A stretch of 64,000 bases of DNA, from assembly GCA_016699365.1 (NCBI GenBank), contig CP064973.1, positions 429,684 through 493,683 on the forward strand. Reading direction: 5' to 3'. Made by a program: the position numbers and the translations under genes. Below are positions 23,411 through 49,059 of the stretch, one piece after another. The stretch's first letter is position 1; each line of letters begins with the position of its first letter. Below the pieces are notes generated by a model. It worked only from the letters and a program-made list of their open reading frames with translations, ran no database searches and had not been told where the DNA came from. The DNA is from Candidatus Nomurabacteria bacterium. GTDB lineage: Bacteria > Patescibacteriota > Minisyncoccia > Phycocordibacterales > UBA9973.

Positions 23411-23757
23411 TCGTTACTTTTTCAAAAAAGTAACGCAAAAACCTCTTTGCATTTCTACCCACAAATATTCACAAGACTCGGACTCACTAAAAGCATTAAC
23501 TCGCCCCACAGACTCAAAGCGGGGCTCAAACAGAATACTTTTTCCTAACGGAACATTCGTCCTCATCTGTTCATATACTTGTGGGTAGAAAGGGCAAAGC
23601 CTGGGTTCAAGAATTTAAAACATCCAAATCCTCACTATTAAAAAGACTAGCGAGTGTGACGACACGAGCTCGAGGAATTTTCTAGCAAGAAAATATCCGT
23701 GCTTTTTAATAGTGAGGATAAAAAATAGTTTTCCAGAAACCAAACAATAATTAACAC
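23411..23757. ncRNA. Unclassified structured element, copy 1 of 2 (candidate ncRNA family)
   Basis: Shares nucleotide blocks with 48654-48992. Paired stems differ between the copies by compensatory changes (CGTTACTTTTT/AAAGTAACG versus CACTACTTTTTT/AAAGTAGTG; CTACCCACAAG/CTTGTGGGTAG versus CAGTACCAAG/CTTGGTACTG). Conserved TAGCAA loop and 3' hairpin GGTTTTCCAGAAACC. Confidence 0.4.
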
Positions 23758-23772
23758 AGAAGGTGATAGGAG

Positions 23773-24537
23773 TTATAAAACAAAAAACAAAAATACGAGT
23801 GCTAGGAGTATGCGATATATTCCAAATCCAATAAAATTATGCTTCTCTATAAAACGGATAAATATTTTTACAGCAAACAGCGCTGATACAAATGCACTTA
23901 CAAAACCAATTCCGAGCAACGTCCATTCGCTTGAAGAAAAAGTAAAACCAGTTTTGATTAGGTCGAGACCTGATGCTGCGATAAGTGTAGGTATGCCTAG
24001 TAGGAAAGAGAACTCAACAACATTTTTCCTTGTGATTCCCATCGAGAGTCCGCCTATAATCATCGCTCCTGAACGCGATACTCCAGGGATAAAAGCTAGG
24101 GTTTGAAACACTCCGAGCAATATTGCGTTTTTAGTTGTGATTTCTTTTGGTTCAGATTGAGCTCTTCTTTTGAACCAGATCTCAAAAAGTATTATGAGTA
24201 TCCCACCAAACAGTAGTGAATATATGACTACGTAAGTGTTAGAGAGCAAGAATTCTTTTATAAATGGGTATAGTACTATTCCGATTATTGCAGTAGGGAT
24301 AAATGCTAGGGCGATGTTCTTCATCAAGTCCCAGTTTTGGATTAACCTTTTTGTAAATAAAAAAAGGATAGCTATTAGTGCTCCGACTTGGATTGTAATT
24401 GTGAAGCTTTCTACAAAAGGCGTTGACTCTATTCCTAGTGTGCGAGTGGCAAGTATCAAGTGCCCAGTAGAGGATACTGGTAGGAACTCTGTGACACCTT
24501 CTATTATTCCTAAGACGATTGATTGGAGTATTGTCAT
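23773..24537 (-). CDS. uppP: Undecaprenyl-diphosphate phosphatase
   Basis: BacA/UppP signature LQSIVLGIIEGVTEFLPVSSTGHLIL, ~8 TM helices. Confidence 0.8.
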   Translation of the reverse strand: MTILQSIVLGIIEGVTEFLPVSSTGHLILATRTLGIESTPFVESFTITIQVGALIAILFLFTKRLIQNWDLMKNIALAFIPTAIIGIVLYPFIKEFLLSNTYVVIYSLLFGGILIILFEIWFKRRAQSEPKEITTKNAILLGVFQTLAFIPGVSRSGAMIIGGLSMGITRKNVVEFSFLLGIPTLIAASGLDLIKTGFTFSSSEWTLLGIGFVSAFVSALFAVKIFIRFIEKHNFIGFGIYRILLALVFLFFVL

Positions 24538-25229
24538 TATTTTTTATTTACAAACAAGAAGCTAGATATTATCGCAGCTGTTTCAGCTCGGAGAGTTGAG
24601 TTTCCAATACTAACAATCTGTACACCTGTGTCTTTTGCGGTTTGTATTTCATTCTCAGCCCACCCACCTTCTGGTCCTACAAATATTGAAACTTCCTCTG
24701 GTATTTCTTCTAGGTCATCAAAAGGAATTCCAGTCATATCAAGCAAATACTTCTCTCCGGGAGAATTTTTTAGAGCTTCTATTAAATTGGTCTTTTCTTC
24801 TAGTGTGGGTAAATATGATCCGCCAGATTGTTCGAGTGCCTCCTTGATAATAGTTTTCAGACGCTCTTCTTTGAGGCCAGTTTTAACGGTCCTGTCAGAT
24901 TCTATTGGATTTATACTTGCTACTCCAACCTCAGTTACTTTTTGGGCTACAAGTTCAAAGTTTTCTTTTTTTAATATCGATAGATATAAATGCACTTTGT
25001 GTGAAGGTTTTTCTGAAATTACTCTCTCTACAACACTGCCCACAATAGAATCTTTTGATATTTCAGTTAGGGTGATGTGTATATTTTTACCCACCCCGTC
25101 AGTTAGAATTATTTTTTCTCCCATGCGGAGCTTTAGTACATTTTTGATTTGATGAATTAGGTCTGTATTTTCTATAAATACATTGTTTCCGATTTCTTTG
25201 TATTCAGTTAAAAAACGGTGAACCTTCAT
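24537..25229 (-). CDS. rsmE: 16S rRNA (uracil1498-N3)-methyltransferase, RsmE family
   Basis: PUA-like N-terminus and C-terminal GPEGGW...LRAETAA motif. Start set at MKVHRF. Confidence 0.65.
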   Translation of the reverse strand: MKVHRFLTEYKEIGNNVFIENTDLIHQIKNVLKLRMGEKIILTDGVGKNIHITLTEISKDSIVGSVVERVISEKPSHKVHLYLSILKKENFELVAQKVTEVGVASINPIESDRTVKTGLKEERLKTIIKEALEQSGGSYLPTLEEKTNLIEALKNSPGEKYLLDMTGIPFDDLEEIPEEVSIFVGPEGGWAENEIQTAKDTGVQIVSIGNSTLRAETAAIISSFLFVNKK

Positions 25230-25230
25230 A

Positions 25231-25785
25231 TTACACTCCGACAAATATAGTGTAAAAGAATTTTACAACTGGATCTACATCAGGTCCATATACGAGTGCT
25301 CCGCCTAAAGATCCTGCGACTGTTATAAAAAACAGTCCTACGATTGCAAGCAAGATTAAAATTCTTTTTTTCCAAAATATAGCCTTGATTTTTAGTAGTA
25401 AATTCCAGATGCTTTGACCTACACCACTACTTGTGTATTTTATGAAAGATTGAGTTTTTTCGATCAGCCAGATTAGATACACTATCGCAAGTGCTCCAAA
25501 TATATAACTTGCTCCAACTGCAAAAAATGCATGAGTCTCTAAAAGTTTTCCCTGAGGTCCGCTCTCCATCGCCTCACCGACAAGTGCACCTGTTTGTACA
25601 GCAAGAATAGAAGATAGAGATCCGAGGATTAAAAATGCGGATTTGATATAAGTGATTGTGTCAGTAGCCTCAAATCTTTTGATACGGATAATCTCAAAAA
25701 GTGCATAAATAGTAAAAAGCGCAATAGGGAAGTGAACAAAAATTGGGTGTATATTTATCATATATTTAAGTATAACATGACTCAA
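25231..25785 (-). CDS. Membrane protein (DUF2231-like)
   Basis: Four TM segments. N-terminal block HPIFVHFPIALF is typical of DUF2231 proteins. Confidence 0.4.
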   Translation of the reverse strand: MSHVILKYMINIHPIFVHFPIALFTIYALFEIIRIKRFEATDTITYIKSAFLILGSLSSILAVQTGALVGEAMESGPQGKLLETHAFFAVGASYIFGALAIVYLIWLIEKTQSFIKYTSSGVGQSIWNLLLKIKAIFWKKRILILLAIVGLFFITVAGSLGGALVYGPDVDPVVKFFYTIFVGV

Positions 25786-25973
25786 TATACGTTGTCACAA
25801 AAGTATATTTGGTTCGTCATAAAGTATAGACGCTAAGTCAAATAATCCTTTCGACAGGGGAATTATTATCACAAAACCGCCCTAATATCCTTGGGCGGTT
25901 TTGTATTGACTTTTAAAGCATTTTATGCTATTATTAGGGTTCACAAATAGTTCATCTCAAAATTTAAGATAGC

Positions 25974-26543
25974 ATGAAAAAATATTTAACCTTACTTGTT
26001 TCATTTATTTTCGGCCTGACAGCTTGTCAGAAAGACCCGATGCCGGGGGACCTTTTCAATAAAATTGACGGCACCTGGTTCGGGTACAAAGTGTACTTCG
26101 GCCAGGCTCCGGTGCTCGATGTGAGCGACCAGGGACTTGCCGATTTATTTATCACCTTTGATCTTGACGGCATCGTTACGATGCAGTTCATGTCATACGG
26201 TGGCACCGACCCGAATTCGGGTGGTGAAGCTTACTGGTCTGATCAAACCTTTACTGGAGATTACTGGCGCAATGAAGATGGTAGCTGGCATGTGCAGTTC
26301 AGCAATTATGATACCTTGCATGTCACAACCAACCGCAAATTTGCGTTGGACTGGACCAATGGTGACTACAGCTACACTGCTGGTGGTGCACCAAGTGATG
26401 AGACTCGCGAGAGTTTCACACTGACTTCGCTCAATGGTGAAAATCACGGTTCAAGCTGGACGTTGATTTGGTACTCCAAAATAGGATGGCTTAAAGCCCG
26501 TACTGTCGAGGATGCTGCACCAACCGATACATATTATCGGTAA
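25974..26543 (+). CDS. Hypothetical lipoprotein (compositionally atypical; GC ~48-50%)
   Basis: Signal peptide plus lipobox LTAC. Rich in Trp/Tyr/Gly. All six frames are open across it, reflecting elevated GC. Confidence 0.45.
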   Translation: MKKYLTLLVSFIFGLTACQKDPMPGDLFNKIDGTWFGYKVYFGQAPVLDVSDQGLADLFITFDLDGIVTMQFMSYGGTDPNSGGEAYWSDQTFTGDYWRNEDGSWHVQFSNYDTLHVTTNRKFALDWTNGDYSYTAGGAPSDETRESFTLTSLNGENHGSSWTLIWYSKIGWLKARTVEDAAPTDTYYR

Positions 26544-26563
26544 AGGTAAAAAAATATTTTCAC

Positions 26564-26600
26564 AAACCCGCTCAATCTCGAGCGGGTTTTATTGTTTTTA
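26564..26600 (+). terminator. Rho-independent terminator
   Basis: AACCCGCTCAATCTCGAGCGGGTT followed by TTATTGTTTTT. Confidence 0.55.
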
Positions 26601-26610
26601 AATTATAAAA

Positions 26611-26645
26611 TTAAATCCCCCATATATATGGGGGATTTTTATTAT
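26611..26645. terminator. Terminator hairpin with A and T runs on both flanks, so it can serve the minus-strand AAA gene as well
   Basis: AAATCCCCCATATATATGGGGGATTTTT. Confidence 0.55.
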
Positions 26646-28315
26646 TTATGACGTGAAAAAGTTATCAATCTTTTTCCTGAGTCTTCTATTATCTCAGCAA
26701 TCTCATCATTGTGGTTTAAATCGAGATTTTGCTTGTAGAGATTTTCCACTGCTTCTTCAACATCACTTGCTTGAATACCTGTCTTTGTGTTGTTGGCTAA
26801 GTCTCTTTTCATTGCATTCGATATGGACATATCAACAGCAGAGACAATCATTGCTCCATTGCATATATGATGAAGAAAAAGATGACCCTCTGATTCTGTG
26901 TATTTTATGTCACACAACTTTAAGTCTTCACTAAAGAATTTTTCTACAAAAACTTTCGACAAATCATCTTCTGCTGAATTTGATTTTGGAATCTTTTTGA
27001 TATTCTTTAGGAAAATCTCGCCTGCACTTTTCTGATCAGGTCTAGTGATTTTGACTTTACGATCTATTCTACCGTCTCTTACAATAGCAGGATCAAGCAT
27101 GTCAGGTCTATTGGTAGCTAATATTATAAAAGCTCCAGAATCTTCAAGCCCATCCATTTCTGTCAGAAACATTGGTACTATTGTTTTTTCAACATCAGAA
27201 CTTACACCGGAGCCTCTTTTTGAAAGTATTGCTTCAGCTTCATCTATGAAAAGGGTGGCAGGATAGTTATATTGTGCATTGTGCTTACGGGCTCTATCGA
27301 AGATTTCTCGAATAGTTTCTTCAGCATTGCCAACATATTTATTTAATATCTCTGGGCCTTTTATATATATGAAACCACTTTTAAATCCTTTTTTATCGTA
27401 ATTTTTTGCCAGAGAAGTAGCAACTGCTTTTCCAAGCATTGTCTTGCCACATCCTGGAGGTCCATATAACAGAACACCCTTTGGCATTTTACGATTGTAG
27501 AATTTAAACAAATCAGGATTTTTGAATGGAAGTTCTACGAGCTCTATCATAAGCTCCTTGGCTTTATGTAGTCCTCCGATTTCATCCCAAGATACATTCA
27601 ATTCTTCGTTCAGTGAAAAATCTTCCTCACTCTTTCCTAAATTCTTGAGAATTATAGAAGAGGAGGGATCAAGTACGATGTGATCTCCTGATTCTGCGTC
27701 TTTGTTTATTTTCCCTGAAAAGACGACTTTCTTGGTTCCGGATATTTCCACTTCACAATGGTTTTCATCCATTAACTTTCGGAAGACGCATACAGGTCCA
27801 AGTGTTACTGTGGCTGATCTGTTTACAATTTGTTTTGTTTTAGAAGACAAGGTACAGACATCACCGGGTTCCACATCAATTAAAGGCTTGTTTATTTCAA
27901 GAAATTGCCCATTGATTACAATAGTGATTGTTTCCTTTTCTTCTTTTACTTCCTCAGTCAATTCTAATTCGAAAGATTTGTTTATTCCTCCGATGTCGAA
28001 ATTGTTTTTGTAACCATTTTCAAATTCAGCTTGTACGCATCCATTTAAATCAATTTCTTTGGTTACTTTTCCTTTTGTGTTTAAGTTTTTTAAGTAATCA
28101 GGATGAGAGATAGATAATCTAACTTCTTTTCCTAATGAAAAGTCTGATGGTCTGGGAAGTCTCTCAACAAGAGTTTTATTTCCTGTTTTTACAACAACAC
28201 AGTACTCAAGAGGGGAGCTAGAGATCGTGTCTATCAAATCGGCTTGAACTGCAATTTTCTTGCGAGCATTTTGTAATGCTTCGCGTAAAATTTCTATCAC
28301 TTGTTTAGAATCCAT
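26642..28315 (-). CDS. ARC/Mpa-family AAA+ ATPase (proteasome-associated-ATPase-like: coiled coil + double OB fold + AAA)
   Basis: Walker A GVLLYGPPGCGKTMLGKAVATSLAK, Walker B ATLFIDEAEAI, RGSGVSSDVEKTIVPMFLTEMDG, NRPDMLDPAIVRDGRIDRKVKI. The pre-AAA block VSWDEIGGLHKAKELMIELVELPF and the N-terminal coiled coil/OB region match ARC/Mpa (Mpa, the mycobacterial proteasomal ATPase of the ARC family) architecture from memory. C-terminal ~100-aa extension. No GQYL-type tail. Confidence 0.65.
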   Translation of the reverse strand: MDSKQVIEILREALQNARKKIAVQADLIDTISSSPLEYCVVVKTGNKTLVERLPRPSDFSLGKEVRLSISHPDYLKNLNTKGKVTKEIDLNGCVQAEFENGYKNNFDIGGINKSFELELTEEVKEEKETITIVINGQFLEINKPLIDVEPGDVCTLSSKTKQIVNRSATVTLGPVCVFRKLMDENHCEVEISGTKKVVFSGKINKDAESGDHIVLDPSSSIILKNLGKSEEDFSLNEELNVSWDEIGGLHKAKELMIELVELPFKNPDLFKFYNRKMPKGVLLYGPPGCGKTMLGKAVATSLAKNYDKKGFKSGFIYIKGPEILNKYVGNAEETIREIFDRARKHNAQYNYPATLFIDEAEAILSKRGSGVSSDVEKTIVPMFLTEMDGLEDSGAFIILATNRPDMLDPAIVRDGRIDRKVKITRPDQKSAGEIFLKNIKKIPKSNSAEDDLSKVFVEKFFSEDLKLCDIKYTESEGHLFLHHICNGAMIVSAVDMSISNAMKRDLANNTKTGIQASDVEEAVENLYKQNLDLNHNDEIAEIIEDSGKRLITFSRHK

Positions 28316-28428
28316 ATTCTTGTTTTTAATGTTTATTAAATTATATTATAGATTTACAAAATGTCAATGGTTTATTTTCATTACTTGACTTTATGTATGA
28401 TTAGTGTTATTTTTTCAAAAAAAGTGAA

Positions 28429-28734
28429 ATGAAAAAAATCTTGATTAACCTTCCTGCAATTGCATTGATTATTCTTGCAGTTGTCTTTTCTGCTGTAATC
28501 ATCGCAGTATTAAATGATTCAAAATTTCTGATGATTTTGATCGATGTTTGTTTTGGTGTTTTGTTGTTCTTTTTCTTGAGTGGTAAAGAGAAAATTTTTA
28601 AGAAAAAAACCTTTTCACTCCTCCTGCTTTTTGCTGTTTTGATGATCCTAAACACCATAGCCGCAATCTGGAATCCTTTTTTTGCTATTGGTATATTTTT
28701 GATGGCTAAAAGCCTTAAAGAAAACATAAAATAA
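28429..28734 (+). CDS. Small membrane protein, hypothetical
   Basis: 101 aa, ~4 hydrophobic segments. Followed by terminator AAAACCCCTTCAAATGTAGGGGTTTTT (28741-28767). Confidence 0.35.
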   Translation: MKKILINLPAIALIILAVVFSAVIIAVLNDSKFLMILIDVCFGVLLFFFLSGKEKIFKKKTFSLLLLFAVLMILNTIAAIWNPFFAIGIFLMAKSLKENIK

Positions 28735-28771
28735 AGTCTAAAAACCCCTTCAAATGTAGGGGTTTTTACTA

Positions 28772-28800
28772 TTGACAAAACTAGTCTAATATGCTAGTAT
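28772..28800 (+). promoter_or_regulatory. Sigma70-like promoter
   Basis: TTGACA, 17-nt spacer, TAGTAT. Confidence 0.4.
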
Positions 28801-28901
28801 GCGCGCATAGGTGTAAAAACCAATTGTTCATTCAAAAATCAACAAACATTAAAGAATGAATAAACAGAAAAACTATTTCATCACAAAAAAACTTAAAAGA
28901 C

Positions 28902-28994
28902 ATGGGATTTAAAGATTTTATGAAAAACGCCATTTACAAAGGGGGAGAGGATGAAGATCCTTACTCTGATGTGAATATGAAAAAATGTTCCTGA
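28902..28994 (+). CDS. 30-aa ORF (MGFKDFMKNAIYKGGEDEDPYSDVNMKKCS), possibly the frameshifted N-terminus of the next gene
   Basis: Ends 8 nt before ATG 29002 in a different frame. An A6 homopolymer at 28979-28984 lies at the junction. The N-terminal amphipathic MGF..F style resembles PspA/Vipp1-like starts (weak). Confidence 0.25.
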   Translation: MGFKDFMKNAIYKGGEDEDPYSDVNMKKCS

Positions 28995-29001
28995 GAGCAA
29001 G

Positions 29002-29607
29002 ATGGTTGTACCGCTTGTTCAAAATGTAAACCAGGCAGGTGACAGTGTGTCCCTGGACCCGGAGTACATCGAACACTTCACAGAATTTCTCGAATCTGTT
29101 GACCTTCCTGGTCCGGATTACTTCGAGTTTGCGCAAGTTGTGCGAGCTATGGAAAGTGAGAACTCTGGGATGTCAAAAGAGCAAATTTACCGCATGGCCT
29201 ACATTGGGTTCAAAGCCCAAGGTCATCCTGCAAAGATGTTTATAGATACTGCTATGCAGTACCTGTCGTACTTTGAAGAACATAAGGGTAAATTTGAACA
29301 GTATTTGTCCAGCGAGACCGATACTGCTATTGGCACAAAGAGATCTGAGAATATCGCTCTCACAAAAAAGAACGGAGAAAATCTGCAGAAAATTGCTGAT
29401 CTGAAAGCTCAGATTAAGGCGATCGAAACAGAGAATTCTCAAAATTCTCAAAAGATTAAAATCAATGAAGAGGCCATAAGTAATGAGGAAGAACGTATAC
29501 GTAAAAAACGTACTCGTTTTGAAACTACATACGAATGGTTCAAAGAGTTGATCAATACCGACATTGCAAACATGAACAATTTTCTATCACAAAACCAAAA
29601 ACCATAA
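29002..29607 (+). CDS. Coiled-coil protein, hypothetical
   Basis: 201 aa. A globular N-terminal half followed by a heptad-rich C-terminal half (KIADLKAQIKAIETENSQNSQKIKINEEAIS). GC ~46%. Confidence 0.4.
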   Translation: MVVPLVQNVNQAGDSVSLDPEYIEHFTEFLESVDLPGPDYFEFAQVVRAMESENSGMSKEQIYRMAYIGFKAQGHPAKMFIDTAMQYLSYFEEHKGKFEQYLSSETDTAIGTKRSENIALTKKNGENLQKIADLKAQIKAIETENSQNSQKIKINEEAISNEEERIRKKRTRFETTYEWFKELINTDIANMNNFLSQNQKP

Positions 29608-29610
29608 AAA

Positions 29611-30603
29611 GTGGAAAAACCAAACAGTATTCTTAATTCCAAGGAAAAAGTTGTCGGTCTTATAACTGGCCTGATGATTTTAGCCGGTATTGGTGTGGGG
29701 CTGTATTACATCCTCCCGCCTTTATTATTGATTATCACAAACCTGTTGAGGCTCGGCCTCCTGGTAGGTGGTACATTACTGGTTACGGTGGCTTTATTTA
29801 AAGCTCGTAAATTAATCCGTGCCTCGTATGAAGTCTTTATTCAAAAGCTTTGGCGAGCTCTTGCCAACAACGATCCTATTGCGTTGATGAAAATCAAAGT
29901 AAAGGATTGGTGGGAATCACTTGAAGTTGTAAACAAGCGAATACAAACTCTGCGCGGGTCAGAAGCGCTGCTTGAAGCAGCTTGCAATGACAACGCTGAC
30001 GACGCTGAACAATTTATGCAACTTGCTAAAAAAGCTGCATCGGGTGATAAGGGCAAACAATCTCCTCAGGCCATATTGAAAACAAGACAGGCGCTTCGTA
30101 GGCTACAAGCCAACAATCAGTTAGTACCGCGATTACAAGCCGTAAAACAGGCGATCGCGTTACTTGAAAAACTGTACGAGCGTTGGGAGCTTGATATCAA
30201 GGATCTTGAGGATGAGATTGAAGTGCGGAGTATCAGCTTAAAAGCTGTTCGTGACGTATCATCAGCTCTTGAAGCTGCTGAAAGTATTATGAACGGAACA
30301 CCTGATCAGCGTGCAATGGAAGAACTTGCCAATCAAGCATATGCCGAATTGGTAAGCCAACATGTTGGGAAGGTGAAAAGATTCCTCTCGAAATCCAAGG
30401 GTTGGATTGAGGAGTCAGACTTAAAAGAAGCAGTGCTTACTGATGAGGGATTAAAACTCCTTGATTACGACGAGAAATCTTTTAAGCAACTGGTAGATTT
30501 CAAGCAACAGCTTGAAAATGATCCAGTACTGTCTCAGAAAGTAGTGCTCCCAATATCGAAAAACGCCGACGCGGTGATCGAGTCATTTAGTAAATTGAAG
30601 TAA
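29611..30603 (+). CDS. Membrane-anchored coiled-coil protein, hypothetical
   Basis: Two N-terminal TM helices followed by a ~250-aa helical/coiled-coil domain. Translationally coupled to 29002-29607 (4-nt gap). Confidence 0.45.
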   Translation: MEKPNSILNSKEKVVGLITGLMILAGIGVGLYYILPPLLLIITNLLRLGLLVGGTLLVTVALFKARKLIRASYEVFIQKLWRALANNDPIALMKIKVKDWWESLEVVNKRIQTLRGSEALLEAACNDNADDAEQFMQLAKKAASGDKGKQSPQAILKTRQALRRLQANNQLVPRLQAVKQAIALLEKLYERWELDIKDLEDEIEVRSISLKAVRDVSSALEAAESIMNGTPDQRAMEELANQAYAELVSQHVGKVKRFLSKSKGWIEESDLKEAVLTDEGLKLLDYDEKSFKQLVDFKQQLENDPVLSQKVVLPISKNADAVIESFSKLK

Positions 30604-30642
30604 TTTTCCTTTTCATTTTTTAAACAAAAAACAAATAAGCAA

Positions 30643-32490: not shown

Positions 32491-32563
32491 TGTTTGTTGA
32501 TTAATTTGTGATTAAAAGCAGGTCTTTAAGACCTGCTTTTTTATTTGACAAATTGTTAAATCT

Positions 32564-33391: not shown

Positions 33392-33407
33392 AAAACAAGC
33401 ATAAGCA

Positions 33408-39637: not shown

Positions 39638-39645
39638 AAATTATT

Positions 39646-40008
39646 TTATCCGTTTAGTTTGTGATAAGAGTTATATGAAAGTGCGAGGATGATGAATGCT
39701 ACTACTGGCAATGCAAGACCTGCGTTGAACCCAGCGACAACCCATAGACTGACAAACGCACAGATGAAATCGATACCAAATCCAGCATATGCCCACTCTT
39801 TAACACGAGCAGGGAACTTGGGCACGATAAGGACTATAGATCCGAGGACTTTGAATACTGTAAGTAGTGTGACGAAATAGAGTGGATATCCGAGACCTAC
39901 AATGCCTTGGATAGACATTTCGCTTTGTGAAGTGAGGGCGGGCATGACTCCTTCGAATATAAAAATAAGACTAGTGGTGACCCAGAAGATAATTTTGTGT
40001 TTTTTCAT
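39646..40008 (-). CDS. DoxX-family membrane protein
   Basis: 120 aa, 4 TM, DoxX-like. Confidence 0.45.
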   Translation of the reverse strand: MKKHKIIFWVTTSLIFIFEGVMPALTSQSEMSIQGIVGLGYPLYFVTLLTVFKVLGSIVLIVPKFPARVKEWAYAGFGIDFICAFVSLWVVAGFNAGLALPVVAFIILALSYNSYHKLNG

Positions 40009-40029
40009 GAATTTATTGTTTATATAATA

Positions 40030-40245
40030 CTAATTTGTAGGTGATCCGTTTTTTAAATATTTACCTGCAATACTGAGTGCAAAAGAGGGCAGTATTATAA
40101 ATACCGTTACTTGTAAAAGTCTTGCCAATACCTCGCTTAGGACTGTTTGCTCTCCGTCCAGACCTCCTGTCACGGCCATAATAATACCGATAATCCCAAA
40201 GGCGATTGACGCTCCGATAAATATTTTTGTTGCTATTTTTTGCAT
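40030..40245 (-). CDS. Small membrane protein, hypothetical
   Basis: 71 aa, 2 TM. Confidence 0.3.
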   Translation of the reverse strand: MQKIATKIFIGASIAFGIIGIIMAVTGGLDGEQTVLSEVLARLLQVTVFIILPSFALSIAGKYLKNGSPTN

Positions 40246-40298
40246 TGGTTTATTATAACAGTAAAAATATTACCACCAAATTTGATAGAATATATTGT

Positions 40299-40532
40299 AT
40301 GAAAAACATGCCACATAAAATGCCTCCGGATTTCAAAAAAGCAATATCTTCTTCAAGGAAGGCGAGAGAGGTGTGGGAAGTTGTAACACTGCTTGCACGG
40401 AACGAATGGATTTGTTGGGTGACATCGGGTAAAAAAGAAGAGACGAGAGGTATTCGCATCGAGAAAGCTATTTCAAAACTTGAAGGCGGAATGCGCCGAC
40501 CATGTTGCTGGGCAGGGTGTCCACATAGATAA
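40299..40532 (+). CDS. YdeI/OmpD-associated (DUF1801-like) family protein
   Basis: C-terminal RPCCWAGCPHR-type motif. Start set at internal MKNMPHK. Confidence 0.35.
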   Translation: MKNMPHKMPPDFKKAISSSRKAREVWEVVTLLARNEWICWVTSGKKEETRGIRIEKAISKLEGGMRRPCCWAGCPHR

Positions 40533-40556
40533 AAATTGATTAATTACTATTGGATA

Positions 40557-41960: not shown

Positions 41961-41977
41961 AATAAAAATTTTCAGAC

Positions 41978-42400
41978 TTATGCAGTAAATTCAATTAACC
42001 ACTCAATACCGTATTTATCTCGAAACATTCCAGCATATGACCCCCAAGGGCTGTCTCCCATAGGCCCTTCGATTTCTCCTCCGATAGATAAGCTATTGAA
42101 CAATTTCTCAGCCTCTTCTTTACTTTCTGTATTTATTAAAATTTTACTTCTATTTTCATGTTCATTTACAGGTCCCATAAACCCTGGAACATCGTTTGCT
42201 ATCAATACGCTGCCATTACCGATAGGTAGGGAGATATACATAATTTTTTCTGTCTCATTTTCTGGGACAGGGAATTCAGCACTTGCCAGATCTTTGAAAC
42301 GAACGATTTTTTTAAACTCACCACCAAATACCGATTTGTAAAAGGTTAAAGCTTCGAAAGCGTTCCCGTTGAAATTTATCCAAGGATTTATTGTTGTCAT
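41978..42400 (-). CDS. VOC-family (glyoxalase/PhnB-like) protein
   Basis: MTTINPWINFNGNAFEALTFYKSVFGG matches the PhnB-like N-terminus. Confidence 0.55.
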   Translation of the reverse strand: MTTINPWINFNGNAFEALTFYKSVFGGEFKKIVRFKDLASAEFPVPENETEKIMYISLPIGNGSVLIANDVPGFMGPVNEHENRSKILINTESKEEAEKLFNSLSIGGEIEGPMGDSPWGSYAGMFRDKYGIEWLIEFTA

Positions 42401-42440
42401 ATGGCAATCATACCAGATATGACAACCAAGACAAAAATGC

Positions 42441-42463
42441 TTTTTTATGTTGCTCGGGAGGTA
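42441..42463. repeat. Partial duplicate of the tRNA-Asn 3' flank and acceptor (23 nt, 1 mismatch), in direct orientation ~170 nt from the gene
   Basis: TTTTTATGTTGCTCGGGAGGTAG versus TTTTTATATTGCTCGGGAGGTAG at 42611-42633. An inverted copy of the T-arm (TTCGATCCCTAC, 42539-42550) and of the acceptor end (CTCCCGAGCAATATAAAAA, 42575-42593) lies between them. Confidence 0.5.
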
Positions 42464-42621
42464 GAGTGATCTCGACTACTGTCGCGGGTAACTTTCCGAA
42501 ACTCTCAGAATATATTCTTCGTGTTTCAGGAAAGTTCTTTCGATCCCTACACGGAAAGTTTCCCAAACTTTCCTCTCCCGAGCAATATAAAAAACGCCAA
42601 CAAGTGGCGCTTTTTATATTG

Positions 42622-42693
42622 CTCGGGAGGTAGGGATCGAACCTACGACCAATCGCTTAACAGGCGACCGCTCTACCGCTGAGCTACTCCCGA
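42622..42693 (-). tRNA. tRNA-Asn (GTT)
   Basis: Folded by eye. Acceptor TCGGGAG/CTCCCGA, D-arm GCTCAGCGGTAGAGC, anticodon loop CTGTTAA, T-arm GTAGGTTCGATCCCTAC, discriminator G. CCA not encoded. Confidence 0.8.
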
Positions 42694-42773
42694 ATATTCA
42701 TATAGAACAGACAAAATATACCAAAAATACAGAAAAAAGCAAAAGGCGCTCCAGATTGGCGCCTTTGTGTTAT

Positions 42774-43223
42774 TTATTGGCTGGGGTAATAGTAGCTTAT
42801 CCAGCTATTACCATTCCACCATGTGTAACCTATAACTACTTGCCCGTAGACCCATTCAGTGCCGTTCCAGGTGTATTTCCAGCCCAAAAGGGGTGTGGTA
42901 GTAGTCTCGTAAGTCATATTGTTTTTTTGCCAGACAACCTTTTGTTCCAAAATATTGTCATATATAGCATAACTAATCAGGCTTACAACAGTTTGCCCCA
43001 GCAGTGTTCCTAGGCTTGGGTAGTAATAATTGTAATTTTGATTTTCGTATCTGTAATTTCTGTGATAGTAGTATCGATAACCTCTGTAGTATCCATAAGT
43101 TGTTCCGTATCCATTGTTGAATATATAGTAACTTGTGTTTATGGACGTTGGAGGTATAGATACCTGTCCTTTTGTGATATTAGACAATAAGCATAAAATC
43201 AATATGTAAATGAACTTTTTCAT
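42774..43223 (-). CDS. Secreted Tyr/Asn/Arg-rich low-complexity protein
   Basis: Signal peptide. YYRGYRYYYHRNYRYENQNYNYYYP-type repeats and a Trp-rich C-terminus. Confidence 0.45.
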   Translation of the reverse strand: MKKFIYILILCLLSNITKGQVSIPPTSINTSYYIFNNGYGTTYGYYRGYRYYYHRNYRYENQNYNYYYPSLGTLLGQTVVSLISYAIYDNILEQKVVWQKNNMTYETTTTPLLGWKYTWNGTEWVYGQVVIGYTWWNGNSWISYYYPSQ

Positions 43224-43336
43224 ATTTACCCGTTTTATTAATTAAACCACTGTTTAATATCTTAAACAATAGCGCTTGGTAGTTCGTTGGCGTGATATAA
43301 TACATATGTGAGATTATTAGTTTAACCAATAAAAAA

Positions 43337-43723
43337 ATGCTCAACATAAATATAAAAACAACAAATATGGAGCTTACTTCTGCAATCCGTGAGTATACAG
43401 AAAAGAAAATTGAAACCTTAGAGAAAGTTATGAAATCTTCACCTGAGGTGATAAATATTGAAATTGGTAAAACCACAAATCATCACAAACAGGGCGATGT
43501 TTATAAAGCAGAATTGAATATGGCTATTGGTGGATATAAATTTCATACTGAAAGCGAAGAAGAAGATTTATATGCTGCAATAGATGCAGTTCGTGAAGAT
43601 ATGTTCCGTCAGCTTACTGAGAACAAAGATAGAAATGAAACACTTTTCCGACGCGGTGCTCGTAGTGTAAAGAAAATGCTCAAAGGTCTATCAGACAGAA
43701 ATCCGTTTACATCAAAATATTAA
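43337..43723 (+). CDS. hpf: Ribosome hibernation promoting factor (HPF/RaiA)
   Basis: N-terminus NIKTTNMELTSAIREYTEKKIETLEK matches the YfiA/HPF fold family. Promoter TTGGTA-16-TATAAT upstream (43289-43316). Confidence 0.75.
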   Translation: MLNINIKTTNMELTSAIREYTEKKIETLEKVMKSSPEVINIEIGKTTNHHKQGDVYKAELNMAIGGYKFHTESEEEDLYAAIDAVREDMFRQLTENKDRNETLFRRGARSVKKMLKGLSDRNPFTSKY

Positions 43724-43727
43724 AATA

Positions 43728-43760
43728 TAAAACTCCCCAGGTAGGGGAGTTTTATATTTT
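43728..43760. terminator. Terminator hairpin flanked by A and T runs (usable in both directions)
   Basis: AAAACTCCCCAGGTAGGGGAGTTTTATATTTT. Confidence 0.55.
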
Positions 43761-44573
43761 ATAATCAGTTTCTTTTTTACCTTCAGGTATTACTCGTTCG
43801 ATTATGAATTCTCCATTTTCGAATCTCGCTTTTGTGATCTTGATGCGTCTATTATTCTCATCAAAGAAATAAATTCCTGGCCAAGTGAAATACGCTTTGT
43901 ATTTTGCGTATTTTATTTTCGGTTCATCAGAGAGTTTTATTTCACCGTCATCTTTGGATATTTTTTTACAGTATGTAGCATTTTCGTGATTTTGTTCGAT
44001 TGGGATTATTTTTCCATCGAGCCATTCTGGGATGGTGTCAGCAAGTAGTTCTGCTCCGATATGTGTGAGTCGCTCTCGCAGATGTGGTGTAGTCTCATCA
44101 GAGTCAATTTCAGCACGAGACATAGCAAGTATCGGGCCAGTGTCCATTTTTCGCGCCATTTTTTGTATGGTGACACCAGTCTCAGTGTCTTGGTTTAATA
44201 TTGCGGATTCAACAGGTGAGGCACCTCTATATTTTGGAAGTAATGAATAGTGAATATTTAAGGCTCCCAGAGGAAATAAATTGATCAACTCTTCTGAAAA
44301 AATCTTTCCATAAGCGACAACAATTCCTAGATCTAATTCATGAGATTTTATTTCAGACATAAATTTCTCGTCAATTTTCTCTGGAGTTAATAATGGAATA
44401 TTATTTTTCTCTGCCCAAACTTTTACAGGAGTAGGAGTGATTTCAAAATGTCTTCCAATTGGCTTGTCTGGAGAAGTTACTACAAGAGCAGGTAAAAATC
44501 CACGGCTTTTCAATATCTCAAGCGTCACGCTCGCAAGTTCTGGTGTTCCAAAGAATACAAATTTTTTATCCAT
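43752..44573 (-). CDS. fmt: Methionyl-tRNA formyltransferase
   Basis: Formyl-transferase N-domain with NIHYSLLPKYRGASPVESAIL. Confidence 0.85.
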   Translation of the reverse strand: MDKKFVFFGTPELASVTLEILKSRGFLPALVVTSPDKPIGRHFEITPTPVKVWAEKNNIPLLTPEKIDEKFMSEIKSHELDLGIVVAYGKIFSEELINLFPLGALNIHYSLLPKYRGASPVESAILNQDTETGVTIQKMARKMDTGPILAMSRAEIDSDETTPHLRERLTHIGAELLADTIPEWLDGKIIPIEQNHENATYCKKISKDDGEIKLSDEPKIKYAKYKAYFTWPGIYFFDENNRRIKITKARFENGEFIIERVIPEGKKETDYKI

Positions 44574-45105
44574 TGGTTTTTTCAGGAATTATTTCTTCTA
44601 TATCTGTTGCATGGTCTATGAACAATATTCCATCTAAATGATCGATTTCATGTTGGAATATTTGCGCTAGTAGACCACCACCTCCTCGAGTGAATTTCTC
44701 GCCATTTTCGTCATAGGCTTCTACAGTGGCGTTTTTGTAACGTTTTGTTTTTCCATACAACCATCGGACTGAGAGGCATCCTTCTGGAACTTTCTTTTTT
44801 TCTTTGGAGCTTTTTATTATTTTTGGATTTATAAAGACAAGGTCTTTTGGCCAACCACCCGCTGGTTCTTCAGGGTTTTCACTTTTTGCAAAATCTGGAT
44901 GGAATATTTTTCCTGAAATAATAAATATGCGCAACGGAATTCCAATTTGTGGACAAGCTAAAGCCACACCATCACTTTCTCTATGAAGTGCAGTTTGCAT
45001 GTCTTTGATAATCTTTTTTATTTTAGGAGTTTTAATCTCTTTCTGCTCGACTTCTAGTGCGGTATCGCGTAGTACAGGATCATCTTTTTGCACAATTTTT
45101 ACCAT
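44566..45105 (-). CDS. def: Peptide deformylase
   Basis: Motifs EGCLSVR and QHEIDHLDG. Overlaps fmt by 8 nt, the classic def-fmt operon arrangement. Confidence 0.85.
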   Translation of the reverse strand: MVKIVQKDDPVLRDTALEVEQKEIKTPKIKKIIKDMQTALHRESDGVALACPQIGIPLRIFIISGKIFHPDFAKSENPEEPAGGWPKDLVFINPKIIKSSKEKKKVPEGCLSVRWLYGKTKRYKNATVEAYDENGEKFTRGGGGLLAQIFQHEIDHLDGILFIDHATDIEEIIPEKTNG

Positions 45106-45109
45106 AGAT

Positions 45110-46420
45110 TTATTTTAGTTCTTTTATGTATTCGAGAAGGTTTTTTATTTTGACTGTTTCTTGAGATCTAGTAGCCATATCGCGTACGAGTACTGCGTCC
45201 TCTAGAGCTTCTTTTTGTCCAAATAGTATTGCGTAGGGGATTGCAAGTTTTTCAGCGATAGCAAGTTGTTGAGAGAGGGTGTCTTTTGATAGAGATTGAG
45301 CGATAGGGATATGTGCTTTGCGTAAAATTTCAATTACATTTAAACTTTTTAGTTTTGCATCAGCTCCGAGTTGAATGAAATATATTTTAGGTTTCTTCAT
45401 GATACGAGGAGTAAGCTTTTTGTACCAAGGTGCGACGATTATTCGATCTACTCCGATTGATATTCCTACAGCAGGGACGTCTTTCTTGCCACCTAGGTGC
45501 TTTGCTAGATAGTCATATCTTCCTCCTCCTGCGATCGTTAGTCCACTTCCATCTTCTGATATACCTGTATCTATTATCTCAAATACAGTGCGTGTGTAAT
45601 ATGAAAGCCCGCGAACAAGACATTTGTTTATGTTATATGGGATTCCCATTTCTTCTAGATACTCCAAGACTTCTTTGAAGTGTTTTTTACAGTCATGACA
45701 TAGATATGCGATAGAGTCTGGAGCTCCTTCATTGAGTTCTTTTGTCTTTGGATCTTTTGAATCAAGTATTCGAAGAGGGTTGGTCTTTAGTCGTTCGCGG
45801 TCTATAGCAGGCAAGACATTGATATGCTTTTTGTAGTAGTTTGTAAGCTCTCGAATATATGCACCTCGGCATTCTTTGTCGCCAATTGAGTTTATATCTA
45901 CAGACAAGTTACTAGCTCCTGCTTCTTCGAGGATTGTTATACCTGTTCGGATAGCGAGTGCGTCCATTATACTTTTTTCACTTCCTAGTATGTCTGCATC
46001 AAATTGCCAGAATTGTCGGTAACGTCCTTTTTGAGGATTGTCATGACGAAATACTGGTCCATACTGATAATGCATAACCGGCTGGGGCATATTTTGCATT
46101 CCATGTTCTATATATGCACGCATAAGAGAAGCTGTGTGTTCTGGGCGCATAGCAAGCTTGTCACCGCCTTTAGTTTTAAGAGTGTACATTTCTTTGTCTA
46201 CAATATCTGTACCTTCTCCAATTGAAGATGTGAATACTTCTTCTTGTTCTAATATTGGTGTTTCAATTGGTTTGAAACCATAGTACATAGAAACTTCTTG
46301 AGCTTTTTCGAAGAATCCTTGGAATAAATAGTATTCATCTCCAGCAATATCACGCATACCTTTTGGGCTTGCGAGAGGTTCTTTCTTCACTTTTTTTGTT
46401 TGTTCTTTTGACATAGGCAT
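45110..46420 (-). CDS. hisS: Histidyl-tRNA synthetase
   Basis: Class II aaRS motifs (MRPEHTASLMRAY, GGGRYDYL) and a C-terminal anticodon-binding domain. Confidence 0.85.
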   Translation of the reverse strand: MPMSKEQTKKVKKEPLASPKGMRDIAGDEYYLFQGFFEKAQEVSMYYGFKPIETPILEQEEVFTSSIGEGTDIVDKEMYTLKTKGGDKLAMRPEHTASLMRAYIEHGMQNMPQPVMHYQYGPVFRHDNPQKGRYRQFWQFDADILGSEKSIMDALAIRTGITILEEAGASNLSVDINSIGDKECRGAYIRELTNYYKKHINVLPAIDRERLKTNPLRILDSKDPKTKELNEGAPDSIAYLCHDCKKHFKEVLEYLEEMGIPYNINKCLVRGLSYYTRTVFEIIDTGISEDGSGLTIAGGGRYDYLAKHLGGKKDVPAVGISIGVDRIIVAPWYKKLTPRIMKKPKIYFIQLGADAKLKSLNVIEILRKAHIPIAQSLSKDTLSQQLAIAEKLAIPYAILFGQKEALEDAVLVRDMATRSQETVKIKNLLEYIKELK

Positions 46421-47019
46421 TAGTTTACTTGTTCATAATTATGATAAATTCCTGGTGTTACTGAAATTGTAGAAAAAGGGAATAGACGTAAAAATGTCTT
46501 TCCTACGATATGATCTTCGGGCAATGTTCCCCAAGTTCGTGAGTCAGAACTAGCTGGACGATTGTCTCCCATAACAAAGTATTCTCCTGCTTCCAATGTG
46601 TAACTAAGTTCTACTTGTTTTGGAACATTTCCTTTTATATAAGGTTCATTTAGATTGAATCCTTCTGGGTTGGATTCATTTGTTATAGTAACTTTTCCAT
46701 TTTCAGCTACATGAACACTCTCACCCGGTAAACCTATAATTCTTTTTATAAAATATTTTGTTTCATCTTTTGGATATTTAAACACAATCACATCACCGCG
46801 CTTTGGTTCACTGACTCGATATGATATCTCATCTACTATCAAATATTCTCCATCTTGGAATGTTGGTACCATAGAACTTCCAGAAACTATAAAAGGCTGT
46901 GCAACAAATGTGCGCACAGGTATTACTATAAGTAGAGCAATTATTGCAAAGCGTACTACATCCCAAATACTCTCTTTTTTATTTGGTGTAGCGACTTCTG
47001 TAGATTGGTTTTCTTCCAT
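46420..47019 (-). CDS. lepB: Signal peptidase I
   Basis: S26 boxes: SGSSMVPTF, GDVIVFKYP, GDNRPASSDSR. Confidence 0.8.
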   Translation of the reverse strand: MEENQSTEVATPNKKESIWDVVRFAIIALLIVIPVRTFVAQPFIVSGSSMVPTFQDGEYLIVDEISYRVSEPKRGDVIVFKYPKDETKYFIKRIIGLPGESVHVAENGKVTITNESNPEGFNLNEPYIKGNVPKQVELSYTLEAGEYFVMGDNRPASSDSRTWGTLPEDHIVGKTFLRLFPFSTISVTPGIYHNYEQVN

Positions 47020-47267
47020 AAAGTGTGCTCATTGTACTATGGATTTGAGCTTGACACAAATGCTCACTTTGTTGTGTTTTGAAAGGCACGGATATTTTCT
47101 TGCTAGAAAATTCCTCGAGCTCGCGCCGCCGCGCTCACTAGTCCTTTCAAAACACAACAGGCGCTCGCTGAGAAAAAACAAAAATATGCACAAGGTATTT
47201 AATTAGGTAATTTCCAATCACTTCTATATAAATTCGGATTCTATATGTTTTTTGTTATACTCCATAC

Positions 47268-47855
47268 ATGAAAATTATTGTAGGACTAGGGAATCCTGGG
47301 GTGGAATACGAAGGCAGTAGACACAATACTGGCCGGTCTATTTTGATGGTACTCGCAAAGAAGTGGGAATTTTCGCCATGGAAGACTGATGTGAAATTGA
47401 AAGCTCTGACTTCAATAGGTTCGATTGAAAAGAAAAAAGTTATGTTTGTGTTGCCGGAGACTTTCATGAATCTTTCAGGTAAAAGCGTTGCTCCACTTAT
47501 TGGATCGAAGAAAGCTCTCGATGACTTACTTGTCATATATGATGATTTGGATTTACCTCTTGGACGTATCAAACTTTCACACAACCGTAGCGCTGGTGGG
47601 CATAACGGAGTCGCTTCAATTATTAAGTCTGTAAAATCAGAAGCTTTCACACGTATACGTGTCGGAGTGTCACCAGAAACTCCAGGAGGTAAGCTGAAGA
47701 AGCCTACGGGTGAAAGTGTAGTGGTAGATTTCCTGATGAAGAAATTCCGCGAACCAGAAATGGTAGAGTTCAAAAAGATTATTAAAAAAAGTGGAGAAGC
47801 TATTGAGACTTTTGTGACGGAAGGTCGTGAAATGGCTATGACCAAACATAACTAA
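47268..47855 (+). CDS. pth: Peptidyl-tRNA hydrolase
   Basis: KIIVGLGNPGVEYEGSRHNTG and the HNGV motif. Confidence 0.85.
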   Translation: MKIIVGLGNPGVEYEGSRHNTGRSILMVLAKKWEFSPWKTDVKLKALTSIGSIEKKKVMFVLPETFMNLSGKSVAPLIGSKKALDDLLVIYDDLDLPLGRIKLSHNRSAGGHNGVASIIKSVKSEAFTRIRVGVSPETPGGKLKKPTGESVVVDFLMKKFREPEMVEFKKIIKKSGEAIETFVTEGREMAMTKHN

Positions 47856-47867
47856 AGAATAAATAAT

Positions 47868-48605
47868 ATGGAAGACAAAGAATATATTTTCGGGAAGCAT
47901 CCAGTAGAAGAATTTCTCGCACGCACACCAAAGCGTATACAAAAGATTTTTATGAAAGAGGGAATCGAACCAAGGTTCGGGTCTTCAATCAAAGCTTTAG
48001 CAAAGAAATATAAAATATCAGTCGTTGAAGTTGATTTAAAGAAGCTTGCGTTATTGTCCGAAGGTGAACAGCATCAGGGTGTGGTTGCTCTAGTTTCTCC
48101 GACACCAATGTTTGATCTAAAAGAATGGATCGCAAAAATAAAGATTGAAAACAATCCATGTGTGGTTTTGATGGATGAGTTGGAAGACCCGCACAATGTC
48201 GGAGCGATAATTCGTTCTGCTGCAGGTTTTGGCGCGAGTGCTATTTTATTAGCAAAGCATCGTCAAAGTCCGATTACTGGTGTAGTAACAAAAGCTAGTG
48301 CTGGTACCATAGATAGAGTTCCATTGGTGCGTATTGGAAATATAAATGACGCAATTGTTAAATTAAAGGAAAAAGGCTTTTGGATTTTAGGACTTGATGG
48401 AGATGGGGATCAATCGCTTTTTGAGATAGATATGAAAATGCCGGTTTGTATAGTTGTAGGAGGAGAAGGAAAGGGAATCAGAGAGAAAACTTTGGACAAT
48501 TGCGATATAAAAGTTCGTATTCCGATGGAGAATAAAGTTGAATCTTTCAATGCATCAGTTTCTGCAGCGCTTGTGTTGTATGAATGGAGGAAGCAAAACA
48601 AATAG
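47868..48605 (+). CDS. rlmB: 23S rRNA 2'-O-ribose methyltransferase, SpoU/TrmH family (RlmB-like)
   Basis: SPOUT motifs: LMDELEDPHNVGAIIRSAAGFG, IVVGGEGKGI, SLNASVSAA. Confidence 0.75.
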   Translation: MEDKEYIFGKHPVEEFLARTPKRIQKIFMKEGIEPRFGSSIKALAKKYKISVVEVDLKKLALLSEGEQHQGVVALVSPTPMFDLKEWIAKIKIENNPCVVLMDELEDPHNVGAIIRSAAGFGASAILLAKHRQSPITGVVTKASAGTIDRVPLVRIGNINDAIVKLKEKGFWILGLDGDGDQSLFEIDMKMPVCIVVGGEGKGIREKTLDNCDIKVRIPMENKVESFNASVSAALVLYEWRKQNK

Positions 48606-48653
48606 AAATCTTAGAAAAAATCCCCTCTGGGGATTTTTTCTTTATTTATTTAA

Positions 48654-48992
48654 TCACTACTTTTTTGAAAAAGTAGTGCAAAAACTTCTTTGCATTCAGT
48701 ACCAAGAATACTCACTAAATTCAAGTTCACTAAAAGTATTAACTCGCTTTGCTCAAACAGAATACTTTTTCCTTACGGAACGTTCACTTTCATTTGTTCG
48801 TATAATCTTGGTACTGAAAGGCAAAGCCTAGACTCAGGAATTCAGAATTCCCGTATAACTAAATCCATACTTTCTAAAAAGCCTTGCGCAGCCGGGTAGG
48901 CGAGCAGAGCAATTCGCTAGCAAGCGAATATGTGTGCTTTTTAAAAGTATCGATAAAAAAAGGGTTTTCCAGAAACCAAGCTCTGATTAACC
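48654..48992. ncRNA. Unclassified structured element, copy 2 of 2 (candidate ncRNA family)
   Basis: See copy 1 (23411-23757). Followed by terminator AACCCGCAGGGTGGGTTTTTT (49018-49045), whose G-U pairing favours the + strand. Confidence 0.4.
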
Positions 48993-49059
48993 GCAAACTG
49001 AATTGAAGTTATAAAAAGAAAAAACCCGCAGGGTGGGTTTTTTCTTTTGAAATGTTTTT

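Follow-up and report, generated by a model that had tools for sequence, protein, structure and literature searches.

RESULTS

Two copies of a structured element between convergent genes

In this study, we analysed a 64-kb stretch (hereafter the window) of the ~0.7-Mb genome of a Candidatus Nomurabacteria/Paceibacterota bacterium, a member of the Candidate Phyla Radiation (CPR), in which a structured intergenic element lies twice between convergent genes. Copy 1 (23399-23783) is flanked by a gene for a 352-amino-acid (aa) protein without Pfam match and by uppP/bacA, and copy 2 (48642-49020) by a SpoU/RlmB-like methylase gene and the ribosomal protein S1 gene. We show that the element is present in multiple copies per genome in a few related Paceibacterota, where it is found beside terminators among housekeeping genes. 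Moreover, we demonstrate that its copies are reshuffled by DNA recombination, as seen in chimeras, subtype swaps, truncation, inversion and loss at one locus, and that its stems are kept complementary and its loops and junctions are kept in sequence.

The two stretches had been noticed in the first-pass annotation as look-alikes of ~340 nucleotides (nt), and they are real. Over 23405-23765 and 48648-49000 they align with an identity of about 75-80% and share long identical blocks, one of which, GCTCAAACAGAATACTTTTTCCTNACGGAAC (31 nt), has exactly two occurrences in the window, at 23524-23554 and at 48751-48781, where shuffled sequences lead one to expect 0. The features that had been described for them were found in place or a few bases away, among them a 5' hairpin, a long-range stem, an AU-rich outer stem and a hairpin with the loop TAGCAA whose stem differs between the two copies (Table 1). 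An extra hairpin in copy 1 is also genuine and recurs in L089, a copy from another genome. Both copies are intergenic and lie behind terminator-like hairpins, as had been proposed, and the plus-strand terminator expected after copy 2 is present.

Read on the plus strand of the window, a full copy consists of a terminator hairpin, a hairpin module (HP), the modules D1, D2 and D3, and a tail. It begins with one or two terminator-like hairpins and a T-rich spacer, followed by HP, a perfect AT-rich hairpin of the form CNTTACTTTTT-loop-AAAAAGTAANG. In D1, the pair CTTTGC...GCAAAG closes a variable stem of ~40 bp, whose tip is formed by a conserved three-way junction and a variable apical hairpin, and a short variable linker separates D1 from D2. 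The latter is a three-way junction of an AU-rich outer stem with a bulged base, a GC-rich hairpin and a hairpin with the loop (C)UAGCAA(G), and its core occurs in two subtypes, A and B. D3 is a GTTTTCCGGAAAC hairpin, and the tail reads GTGATAKGGGTTAYAAAA. In three copies of the relative CAZWJU and in locus L108, the hairpin AACCCGCCTCTGGCGGG upstream of HP is also part of the repeat.

Table 1. Positions of the element, its modules and other features in the window (CM, covariance model)
Feature	Position	Strand	Description
Copy 1, termB	23380-23396		hairpin AGCCCGCTTTGCGGGCT adjoining the end of HP; direct U-run on the minus strand only (GCGGGCUUUUGAAU)
Copy 1, HP	23412-23435		perfect AT-rich hairpin CGTTACTTTTT-CA-AAAAAGTAACG
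Copy 1, D1	23445-23599		CTTTGC/GCAAAG; long variable stem; three-way tip TCACTAAAAGYATTAACTCG...CTCAAACAGAATACTTTTTCC-loop-GGAAC; variable apical hairpin insert
Copy 1, long-range stem	23452-23468/23575-23591
Copy 1, extra hairpin	23506-23521 region
Copy 1, D2	23626-23719		subtype A; AU-rich outer stem, GC-rich hairpin, CTAGCAAG-loop hairpin; CM R1 101.8 bits
Copy 1, outer AU-rich stem	23628-23645/23702-23719		16-18 bp
Copy 1, D3 and tail	23720-23783		GTTTTCCAGAAACC hairpin; tail GGTGATAGGAGTTATAAAAC
Stop codon of uppP/bacA	23773-23775	minus	overlapped by the tail of copy 1
Copy 2, termA	48613-48641		bidirectional terminator hairpin and T-rich spacer ahead of HP
Copy 2, HP	48655-48678		hairpin CACTACTTTTTT-GA-AAAAGTAGTG
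Copy 2, D1	48688-48826		apical tip short
Copy 2, long-range stem	48695-48710/48803-48818
Copy 2, D2	48861-48954		subtype B; CM R1 84.1 bits
Copy 2, D3, tail and terminator	48955-49048		terminator at 49014-49048, shared with the S1 gene
Third copy	47069-47162	minus	D2 alone, subtype A core; spacer of the divergent genes lepB-like and pth
lepB-like gene	46420-47019	minus
pth	47268-47855	plus
Fourth copy	62992-63083	plus	diverged D2-like unit after tRNA-Cys; CM R1 19.3 bits, E ~0.02
16S rRNA gene	8306-9856
Class A RNase P RNA	14975-15309		118 bits
Adjacent paralogous genes	21025-23319		357 and 352 aa; no Pfam match
Five small genes	55678-57649		after a gene for a solute-binding protein

Copies in relatives and elsewhere in the window

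Homologues of UppP led to syntenic loci of relatives. A genome scan with the pattern CTAGCAAG-N7-11-GTGCTTTTTAA recovered three metagenome-assembled genomes of Paceibacterota: DALYDX (GCA_031972835) and CAZWJU (GCA_964634365), each with the element at four places, and CAYTVX, with the element at one. Profile and CM searches of the collected loci gave seven independent full copies (copies 1 and 2 of the window, w1 and w2, and L084, L089, L092, L093 and L095), and searches with nhmmer and CM gave nine further copies made of D2 only or of D2 and D3. Four D2 copies lie in the window, two of them D2-only units outside the two intervals first singled out, showing that the family is larger and modular. 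A filter-free CM search of the window added only the unit after tRNA-Cys, all other matches being plain hairpins. A scan of metagenomes with the conserved 18-mer AAACAGAATACTTTTTCC returned 82 loci, all of which nhmmer resolved as seed-only chance matches; scans of viral contigs with two patterns gave a single chance match (L101), and copy 2 had no blastn match in the phage and plasmid collections. In four short metagenome contigs of different sample origin (L103, L105, L108 and L109), the sequence stops within HP, D1 or D3, as is usual when a multi-copy repeat breaks short-read assemblies.

The flanking genes that were tested, which are most of the neighbours, are all housekeeping genes: uppP, rsmE-like, rlmB-like, S1, pgk, an M23 peptidase gene, uvrD, tig, frr and holA/holB-like. 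In ~240 kb of sequence from these genomes, in which the flanking genes are partly annotated, no transposase or recombinase was seen; no transposase, reverse transcriptase, integrase or RNA-guided nuclease gene was seen beside a copy, and the check for TnpB, IscB, reverse transcriptase or integrase genes beside the copies, which had been recommended with the original description, likewise turned up none. A linked gene family was considered and rejected: three copies follow genes of 354 aa, and these are unrelated (an M23 peptidase, trigger factor and a surface-protein paralogue).

The D2 unit between lepB-like and pth keeps its position in L107, L102, L108 and L106, the last with a SpoU identity of 62%. 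Its outer stem is fully compensated (GTTGTGTTTTGAAAGG, ATGGTGTTTTGAAAAC and ATGGTCTTTCTAAGAG), and its core is of subtype A in the window and L106 and of subtype B in L102 and L108. An imperfect direct repeat of 7-10 nt flanks it; imperfect direct repeats of the motif AGCGAGCG lie on either side (window 47015-47275). The spacer of L108 (833-1157) is ~110 nt longer than that of L102 (~310 vs ~200 nt) and contains two additional hairpin-like units, each preceded by CTAAGCGAGCGAA.

On either side of the unit after tRNA-Cys lies one copy of a perfect 48-nt direct repeat (62948-62995 and 63071-63118), which comprises the last 19 nt of the tRNA gene and the hairpin downstream of it, and the enclosed insert of 75 nt holds the diverged D2-like core. 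This arrangement looks like the scar of an integration into the 3' end of the tRNA gene.

Site polymorphism and recombination

At the bacA site, the element is present in the same orientation in the window and in CAZWJU (L092). In DALYDX (L084), it is inverted and lies behind the bacA terminator, with an inverted repeat of 17-38 nt at its two ends. In L083, whose bacA is 92% identical in DNA, the body of the element is absent and a hybrid HP stands alone between two terminators; in L086, whose UppP/BacA protein is 69% identical, there is no element. The hybrid HP of L083 joins the left flanks of the two window copies: 60 nt of window sequence from termA of copy 2 into its HP (48616-48675) recur downstream of bacA in L083 at 100% identity, against a background divergence of ~8%, and the remainder of the L083 junction matches the left flank of copy 1 at 97% identity. 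HP is a recurrent junction for rearrangements between relatives. A simple inversion that would link the states of L083, L084 and the window was tried, and the flanks fit no single inversion.

The SpoU-S1 site is equally variable. Near-identical full copies are found there in the window, L104 and L107; in L108, a copy begins with a left-end hairpin of another type and is cut short inside HP, where the contig ends; CAZWJU (L102) has only D3, the tail and the terminator; and L106 has no element. At position 48951, in D2 of copy 2, strains L104 and L107 have a G where the window has a C, and one pair of the outer stem is thereby broken in the window. Apart from this substitution and one extra A in the window, the 454 nt of intergenic DNA are the same as in these two strains, compared with a divergence of 1.4-1.6% in pth and SpoU nearby.

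Full copies therefore fail as stable orthologous loci at both bacA and SpoU-S1, and only the D2 unit between lepB-like and pth is stable in position. As is expected of an element of the miniature inverted-repeat transposable element (MITE) type, the family is multi-copy, dispersed, non-coding and insertion-polymorphic. Beyond the inverted repeat of L084, the other full copies show at their ends only a weak match to TRYAACCC.

Recombination has also occurred inside the element. D1 of L092 is a chimera of a 5' arm of L095 type and a 3' arm of L093 type, and its fold is lost (z ~0). The rankings of the copies by similarity in D1 and in D2 disagree; therefore, the copies are mosaic. Modules also stand alone or in new arrangements: L097 consists of D2-D3 only, and in L087 as well as in L098 two D2-D3 units, which differ in subtype, lie head to head. 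L098, a DALYDX copy, adjoins a gene of the PrgI family. At the tail end of L095 (7922-7969) there is an inverted partial left end, made of half an HP, a spacer and a hairpin AACCCGCC...GGCGGG, and the body of this copy is therefore bracketed by inverted repeats of ~50 nt.

Conservation of the fold

The first-pass annotation had proposed that the differences between the two copies preserve pairing. The consensus fold of the two sequences comprises 89 pairs for the plus strand and 110 for the minus strand, and on each strand 23 pairs are indeed altered on both sides and still paired. The signal became strong once homologues were added. For HP and D1, counted in six independent full copies, 97.2% of the cells are paired and 31 of 59 pairs show two-sided changes, a result reached by 0 of 500 shuffles and compared with 38-50% in slid controls. 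For D2, in 16 copies, 93.4% are paired, with two-sided changes in 15 of 29 pairs, again 0 of 500 shuffles, and slid controls of 36-57%; its outer stem and its loop hairpin reach 97.9% and 99.3%, respectively. In D1, a single pair of the 59 varies on one side only, and many pairs have flipped between AU and UA or between GC and CG. Loops and junction strands are better conserved than stems, and the stems are nearly all Watson-Crick, with few G·U pairs on either strand. The secondary structure is conserved, and this is backed by the compensatory changes. By-eye readings of the D1 and D2 junctions as K-turn or hammerhead cores fit neither.

Known families and coding potential

At gathering thresholds, Rfam 15 found in the whole window only the 16S rRNA, RNase P RNA and five tRNAs. 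The RNase P RNA that had been announced elsewhere in the window is thus present, at a score just over the gathering score of 100. The element itself has no counterpart in Rfam on either strand of the two copies, whether judged at the gathering threshold or at E<=10, where the weak matches were all far below the gathering score and mostly covered flanking terminators. The families within the scope of Rfam include HEARO, tmRNA, 6S, SRP, group I and II introns, T-box and ribozymes.

A short peptide-like block, NRILFPxGTF, is common to the two window copies and had been named as a possible sign of a translated open reading frame (ORF). The substitutions at codon positions 1, 2 and 3 number 98, 90 and 73, with no excess at the third position, and the frame of the block is shifted by an insert of 16 nt that copy 1 has and copy 2 lacks, and in L084 by the deletion of 1 nt. 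Moreover, the ORFs across the element differ among copies in frame, start codon, boundaries and length. On these grounds, a gene for a small protein was rejected. A riboswitch or 5' leader was also rejected, as the full copies lie between convergent genes or past the 3' ends of genes and not upstream of co-oriented genes; the D2 unit at lepB lies upstream of promoter-like hexamers, the promoter being assigned by eye. An integron attC site was considered only on account of the bulged base in the outer stem of D2; cassette arrays are absent, and no intI was seen.

Strand and transcription

In the full copies, pairs common to the folds of both strands include 12 A·C and 5 G·U combinations in the plus sense, half of which come from the chimeric L092. 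When this copy is left out, D1 has 6 C·A and 3 G·U combinations. D2 has ~15 G·U and 4 A·C in the plus sense, much of it in ambiguous register. The counts of D1 and D2 are inconsistent, and assignment of the strand by this route was abandoned. Folding energy gave no better guide: the minus sense of D1 is more stable by 7-17 kcal/mol, which is compositional since the z-scores are equal in both senses. A promoter scan of both strands of both copies found no sigma-70-like site, and the candidates picked by eye, TATAAC in the tail and TTGCAT after HP, are not conserved.

In L087, L092, L097 and copy 1, the tail runs directly up to the stop codon of the gene next to it, and no terminator stands between the two; in copy 1, this gene is uppP/bacA. 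The termB hairpin of copy 1 is oriented to the minus strand and lies just past HP, beside, and distinct from, the plus-sense terminator of the other neighbouring gene (23335-23357). Because no terminator follows the stop codon and termB of copy 1 faces the minus strand, transcription of the upstream gene most likely continues along the minus strand of these copies, which would add a structured 3' extension to the mRNA. The D2 unit between lepB-like and pth lies, by eye, between two divergent promoter-like sites and, judged in this way, need not be transcribed.

Other features of the window

The two adjacent paralogous genes that precede copy 1 encode proteins 34% identical to each other. Orthologues occupy the corresponding position in CAZWJU (L092), DALYDX (L084) has a distant relative of 328 aa, and the C-terminus of the 352-aa protein resembles, by eye, that of a surface or secreted protein. 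Within the window, the 16S rRNA gene has neither a 23S nor a 5S gene beside it. Orthologues in L102 and L104 of the five small genes that follow the solute-binding protein gene match type IV secretion system pilin and TrbC families.

DISCUSSION

It seems to us that the element is best regarded as a lineage-specific, non-autonomous, recombining, modular and structured intergenic repeat of the ERIC (enterobacterial repetitive intergenic consensus), BOX or MITE kind, some copies of which are read through as 3' extensions, a reading that we hold with a confidence slightly short of even. According to this proposal, the fold would be selected in its single-stranded form, and the most likely effect would be that a stable RNA structure at the 3' end terminates or insulates convergent transcription and protects the message, as proposed for ERIC, BOX and REP-type (repetitive extragenic palindromic) repeats. 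Spread might occur by recombination or through a putative trans-acting enzyme. At the RNA level, ERIC elements, also called intergenic repeat units (IRU), and BOX elements are believed to serve as structures that stabilise or terminate. Like ERIC/IRU and the pneumococcal BOX, the CPR element is a dispersed, non-coding intergenic repeat of 100-350 nt close to the ends of genes, built of modules in varied combinations, with a compensated structure, no encoded protein and no known transposase. Unlike them, it resides in a CPR host, has no sequence relationship to them, and possesses two three-way-junction domains with invariant loops as well as its own terminator hairpins; its copy number seems low, from a few to perhaps tens per 0.7-Mb genome, and its transcription is a prediction.

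Several points weigh against this reading. The full unit has no clean terminal inverted repeats (TIRs) or target-site duplications, the inverted repeat of L084 and the weak TRYAACCC ends being all that resembles them, and in the ~240 kb mentioned above, with its partly annotated flanking genes, no transposase or recombinase was seen. The multi-domain fold with its two three-way junctions and invariant loops exceeds that of known MITE, REP, ERIC or BOX elements and looks like a functional RNA or a fold recognised by a protein. The subtypes predate the species splits and almost all copies are 93-97% paired, which suggests selection on each copy. The D2 unit between lepB-like and pth, long kept with a perfectly compensated outer stem down to 62% SpoU identity, is not easily explained as selfish DNA when the genome measures just ~0.7 Mb. 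Moreover, transcription, strand and an effect in RNA are at this point proposals.

Other known systems share some of these traits. MITEs, REP sequences and bacterial interspersed mosaic elements (REP/BIME), and the Rickettsia palindromic elements are also palindrome-rich, multi-copy, non-autonomous and polymorphic in presence and orientation; they resemble the CPR element further in its inverted-pair units (L087 and L098) and in the breaking of assemblies at its copies. They differ from it in that the full CPR unit lacks consistent TIRs or short target duplications, no RAYT or other transposase was seen, and the stems vary freely and the loops are conserved, which is the opposite of transposase-bound TIRs. 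The CPR element is also much longer than a REP sequence (20-40 nt). The large RNAs ROOL, GOLLD, OLE and raiA are likewise multi-domain, strongly covarying, non-coding, phylogenetically restricted and unexplained in their role; however, these are single or few fixed genes with a defined strand, in contrast to the modular, recombining and variably present CPR element, which matches none of their models. Our literature search found no report of CPR repeat families or of lineage-specific structured RNAs of this kind.

The first-pass annotation had suggested an unclassified family of non-coding RNAs (ncRNAs). The conserved fold and the lack of an Rfam match stand, but the picture of a fixed gene with two paralogues gives way to that of a dispersed, modular and polymorphic element. 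In the form of a multi-copy family of trans-acting structured ncRNA genes of ~330-400 nt, each with its own promoter and terminator and with the partial copies as decayed or specialised paralogues, this proposal is in our opinion unlikely but deserves serious weight. The very strong covariation and the conserved loops and junctions speak for it, as does the lack of an Rfam match; terminator-like hairpins bracket every full copy, so that each might be a transcription unit of its own, and the subtypes are common to several genomes and have thus long been maintained. In addition, one tetraloop reads GUAA, GACA or GUUA on the minus strand, where tandem G·A pairs are possible. Against such genes stand the missing sigma-70-like promoter on either strand, a strand that neither the D1 and D2 mismatch counts nor the equal z-scores fix, stems that are almost purely Watson-Crick with scarce G·U, and the presence/absence, inversion, chimerism, lone modules and inverted pairs among close relatives, all atypical of an ncRNA gene. 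A bolder version, which we regard as rather unlikely, is that of a hitherto unrecognised class of large structured RNA with two domains (~330-400 nt), mobile in its own right in CPR bacteria and possibly a ribozyme or the protein-guiding RNA of a mobile system of unknown nature, with D1 and D2 exchangeable and insertable alone. The near-exclusive and symmetric Watson-Crick pairing, without a consistent G·U strand bias, is what one would expect if the element acted at the DNA level, its single-stranded or cruciform hairpins being substrates of a putative HUH/Y1 transposase or site-specific recombinase without any RNA role, and its complementarity being kept by the requirements of the enzyme or by hairpin-templated repair. 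The many AU/UA and GC/CG flips with a single one-sided pair in D1, the use of HP as a crossover point (the hybrid HP of L083, and the inverted partial HP and terminator at the far end of L095), the persistence of D2 between two divergent promoter-like sites and the 48-nt direct repeat around the tRNA-Cys unit, as after an integration, would fit this explanation. We nevertheless consider it quite improbable, given that no gene for such an enzyme was seen in the sequence examined, that transposase ends rarely show conserved three-way junctions or asymmetric internal loops, that several copies are most likely transcribed by read-through, and that the promoters of lepB and pth were assigned by eye only.

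An orphan guide-type RNA (an IscB, IsrB or TnpB omega-RNA, a HEARO-like RNA or an IS110 bridge RNA), whose nuclease or recombinase gene has been lost or acts in trans, is a very improbable explanation. The element does resemble HEARO and IscB omega-RNAs in its RNA-like fold of ~300 nt, its several copies per genome, its apparent mobility and the frequent lack of an adjacent ORF, and there is a faint HNH match in a 115-aa ORF of L102. HEARO RNAs are reportedly often found without an ORF. However, the models of HEARO and related RNAs in Rfam gave no match even at E<=10, no IscB, TnpB, HNH or IS110-sized gene was seen beside any of the 16 copies, and neither end carries an evident guide, that is, a copy-specific unpaired segment, the variable parts being paired stems. 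An omega-RNA-like role is thus unlikely. We see hardly any chance for a cis-regulatory leader or riboswitch, or for a small-protein gene with the NRILFPxGTF frame. Three D2(-D3) units are indeed followed, after 40-120 nt, by a gene in the same orientation (lepB, frr and prgI), but no full copy is placed in this way, and the unit at lepB is placed ahead of a promoter-like site; the peptide-like block shared by the window copies is contradicted by the codon-position counts, the L084 deletion, the 16-nt gap and the differing starts. Taken together, the structured repeat remains our preferred reading, but given so elaborate a fold, invariant loops, old subtypes and a long-lived copy between lepB-like and pth, we keep as alternatives both an ncRNA, perhaps itself mobile, and an element acting at the DNA level.

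The genomes of CPR/Patescibacteria are among the most streamlined, and still this multi-domain element fills several intergenic regions of ~0.7 Mb. If it is a selfish repeat, it would reveal that recombination within the genome and the spread of repeats are active even where almost no such DNA was believed to exist, and it might serve as a marker for strain-level rearrangements. If it is a functional RNA, it would represent a new class of large structured RNA with unusually clean covariation (46 two-sided pairs), and a candidate for structural and biochemical study.

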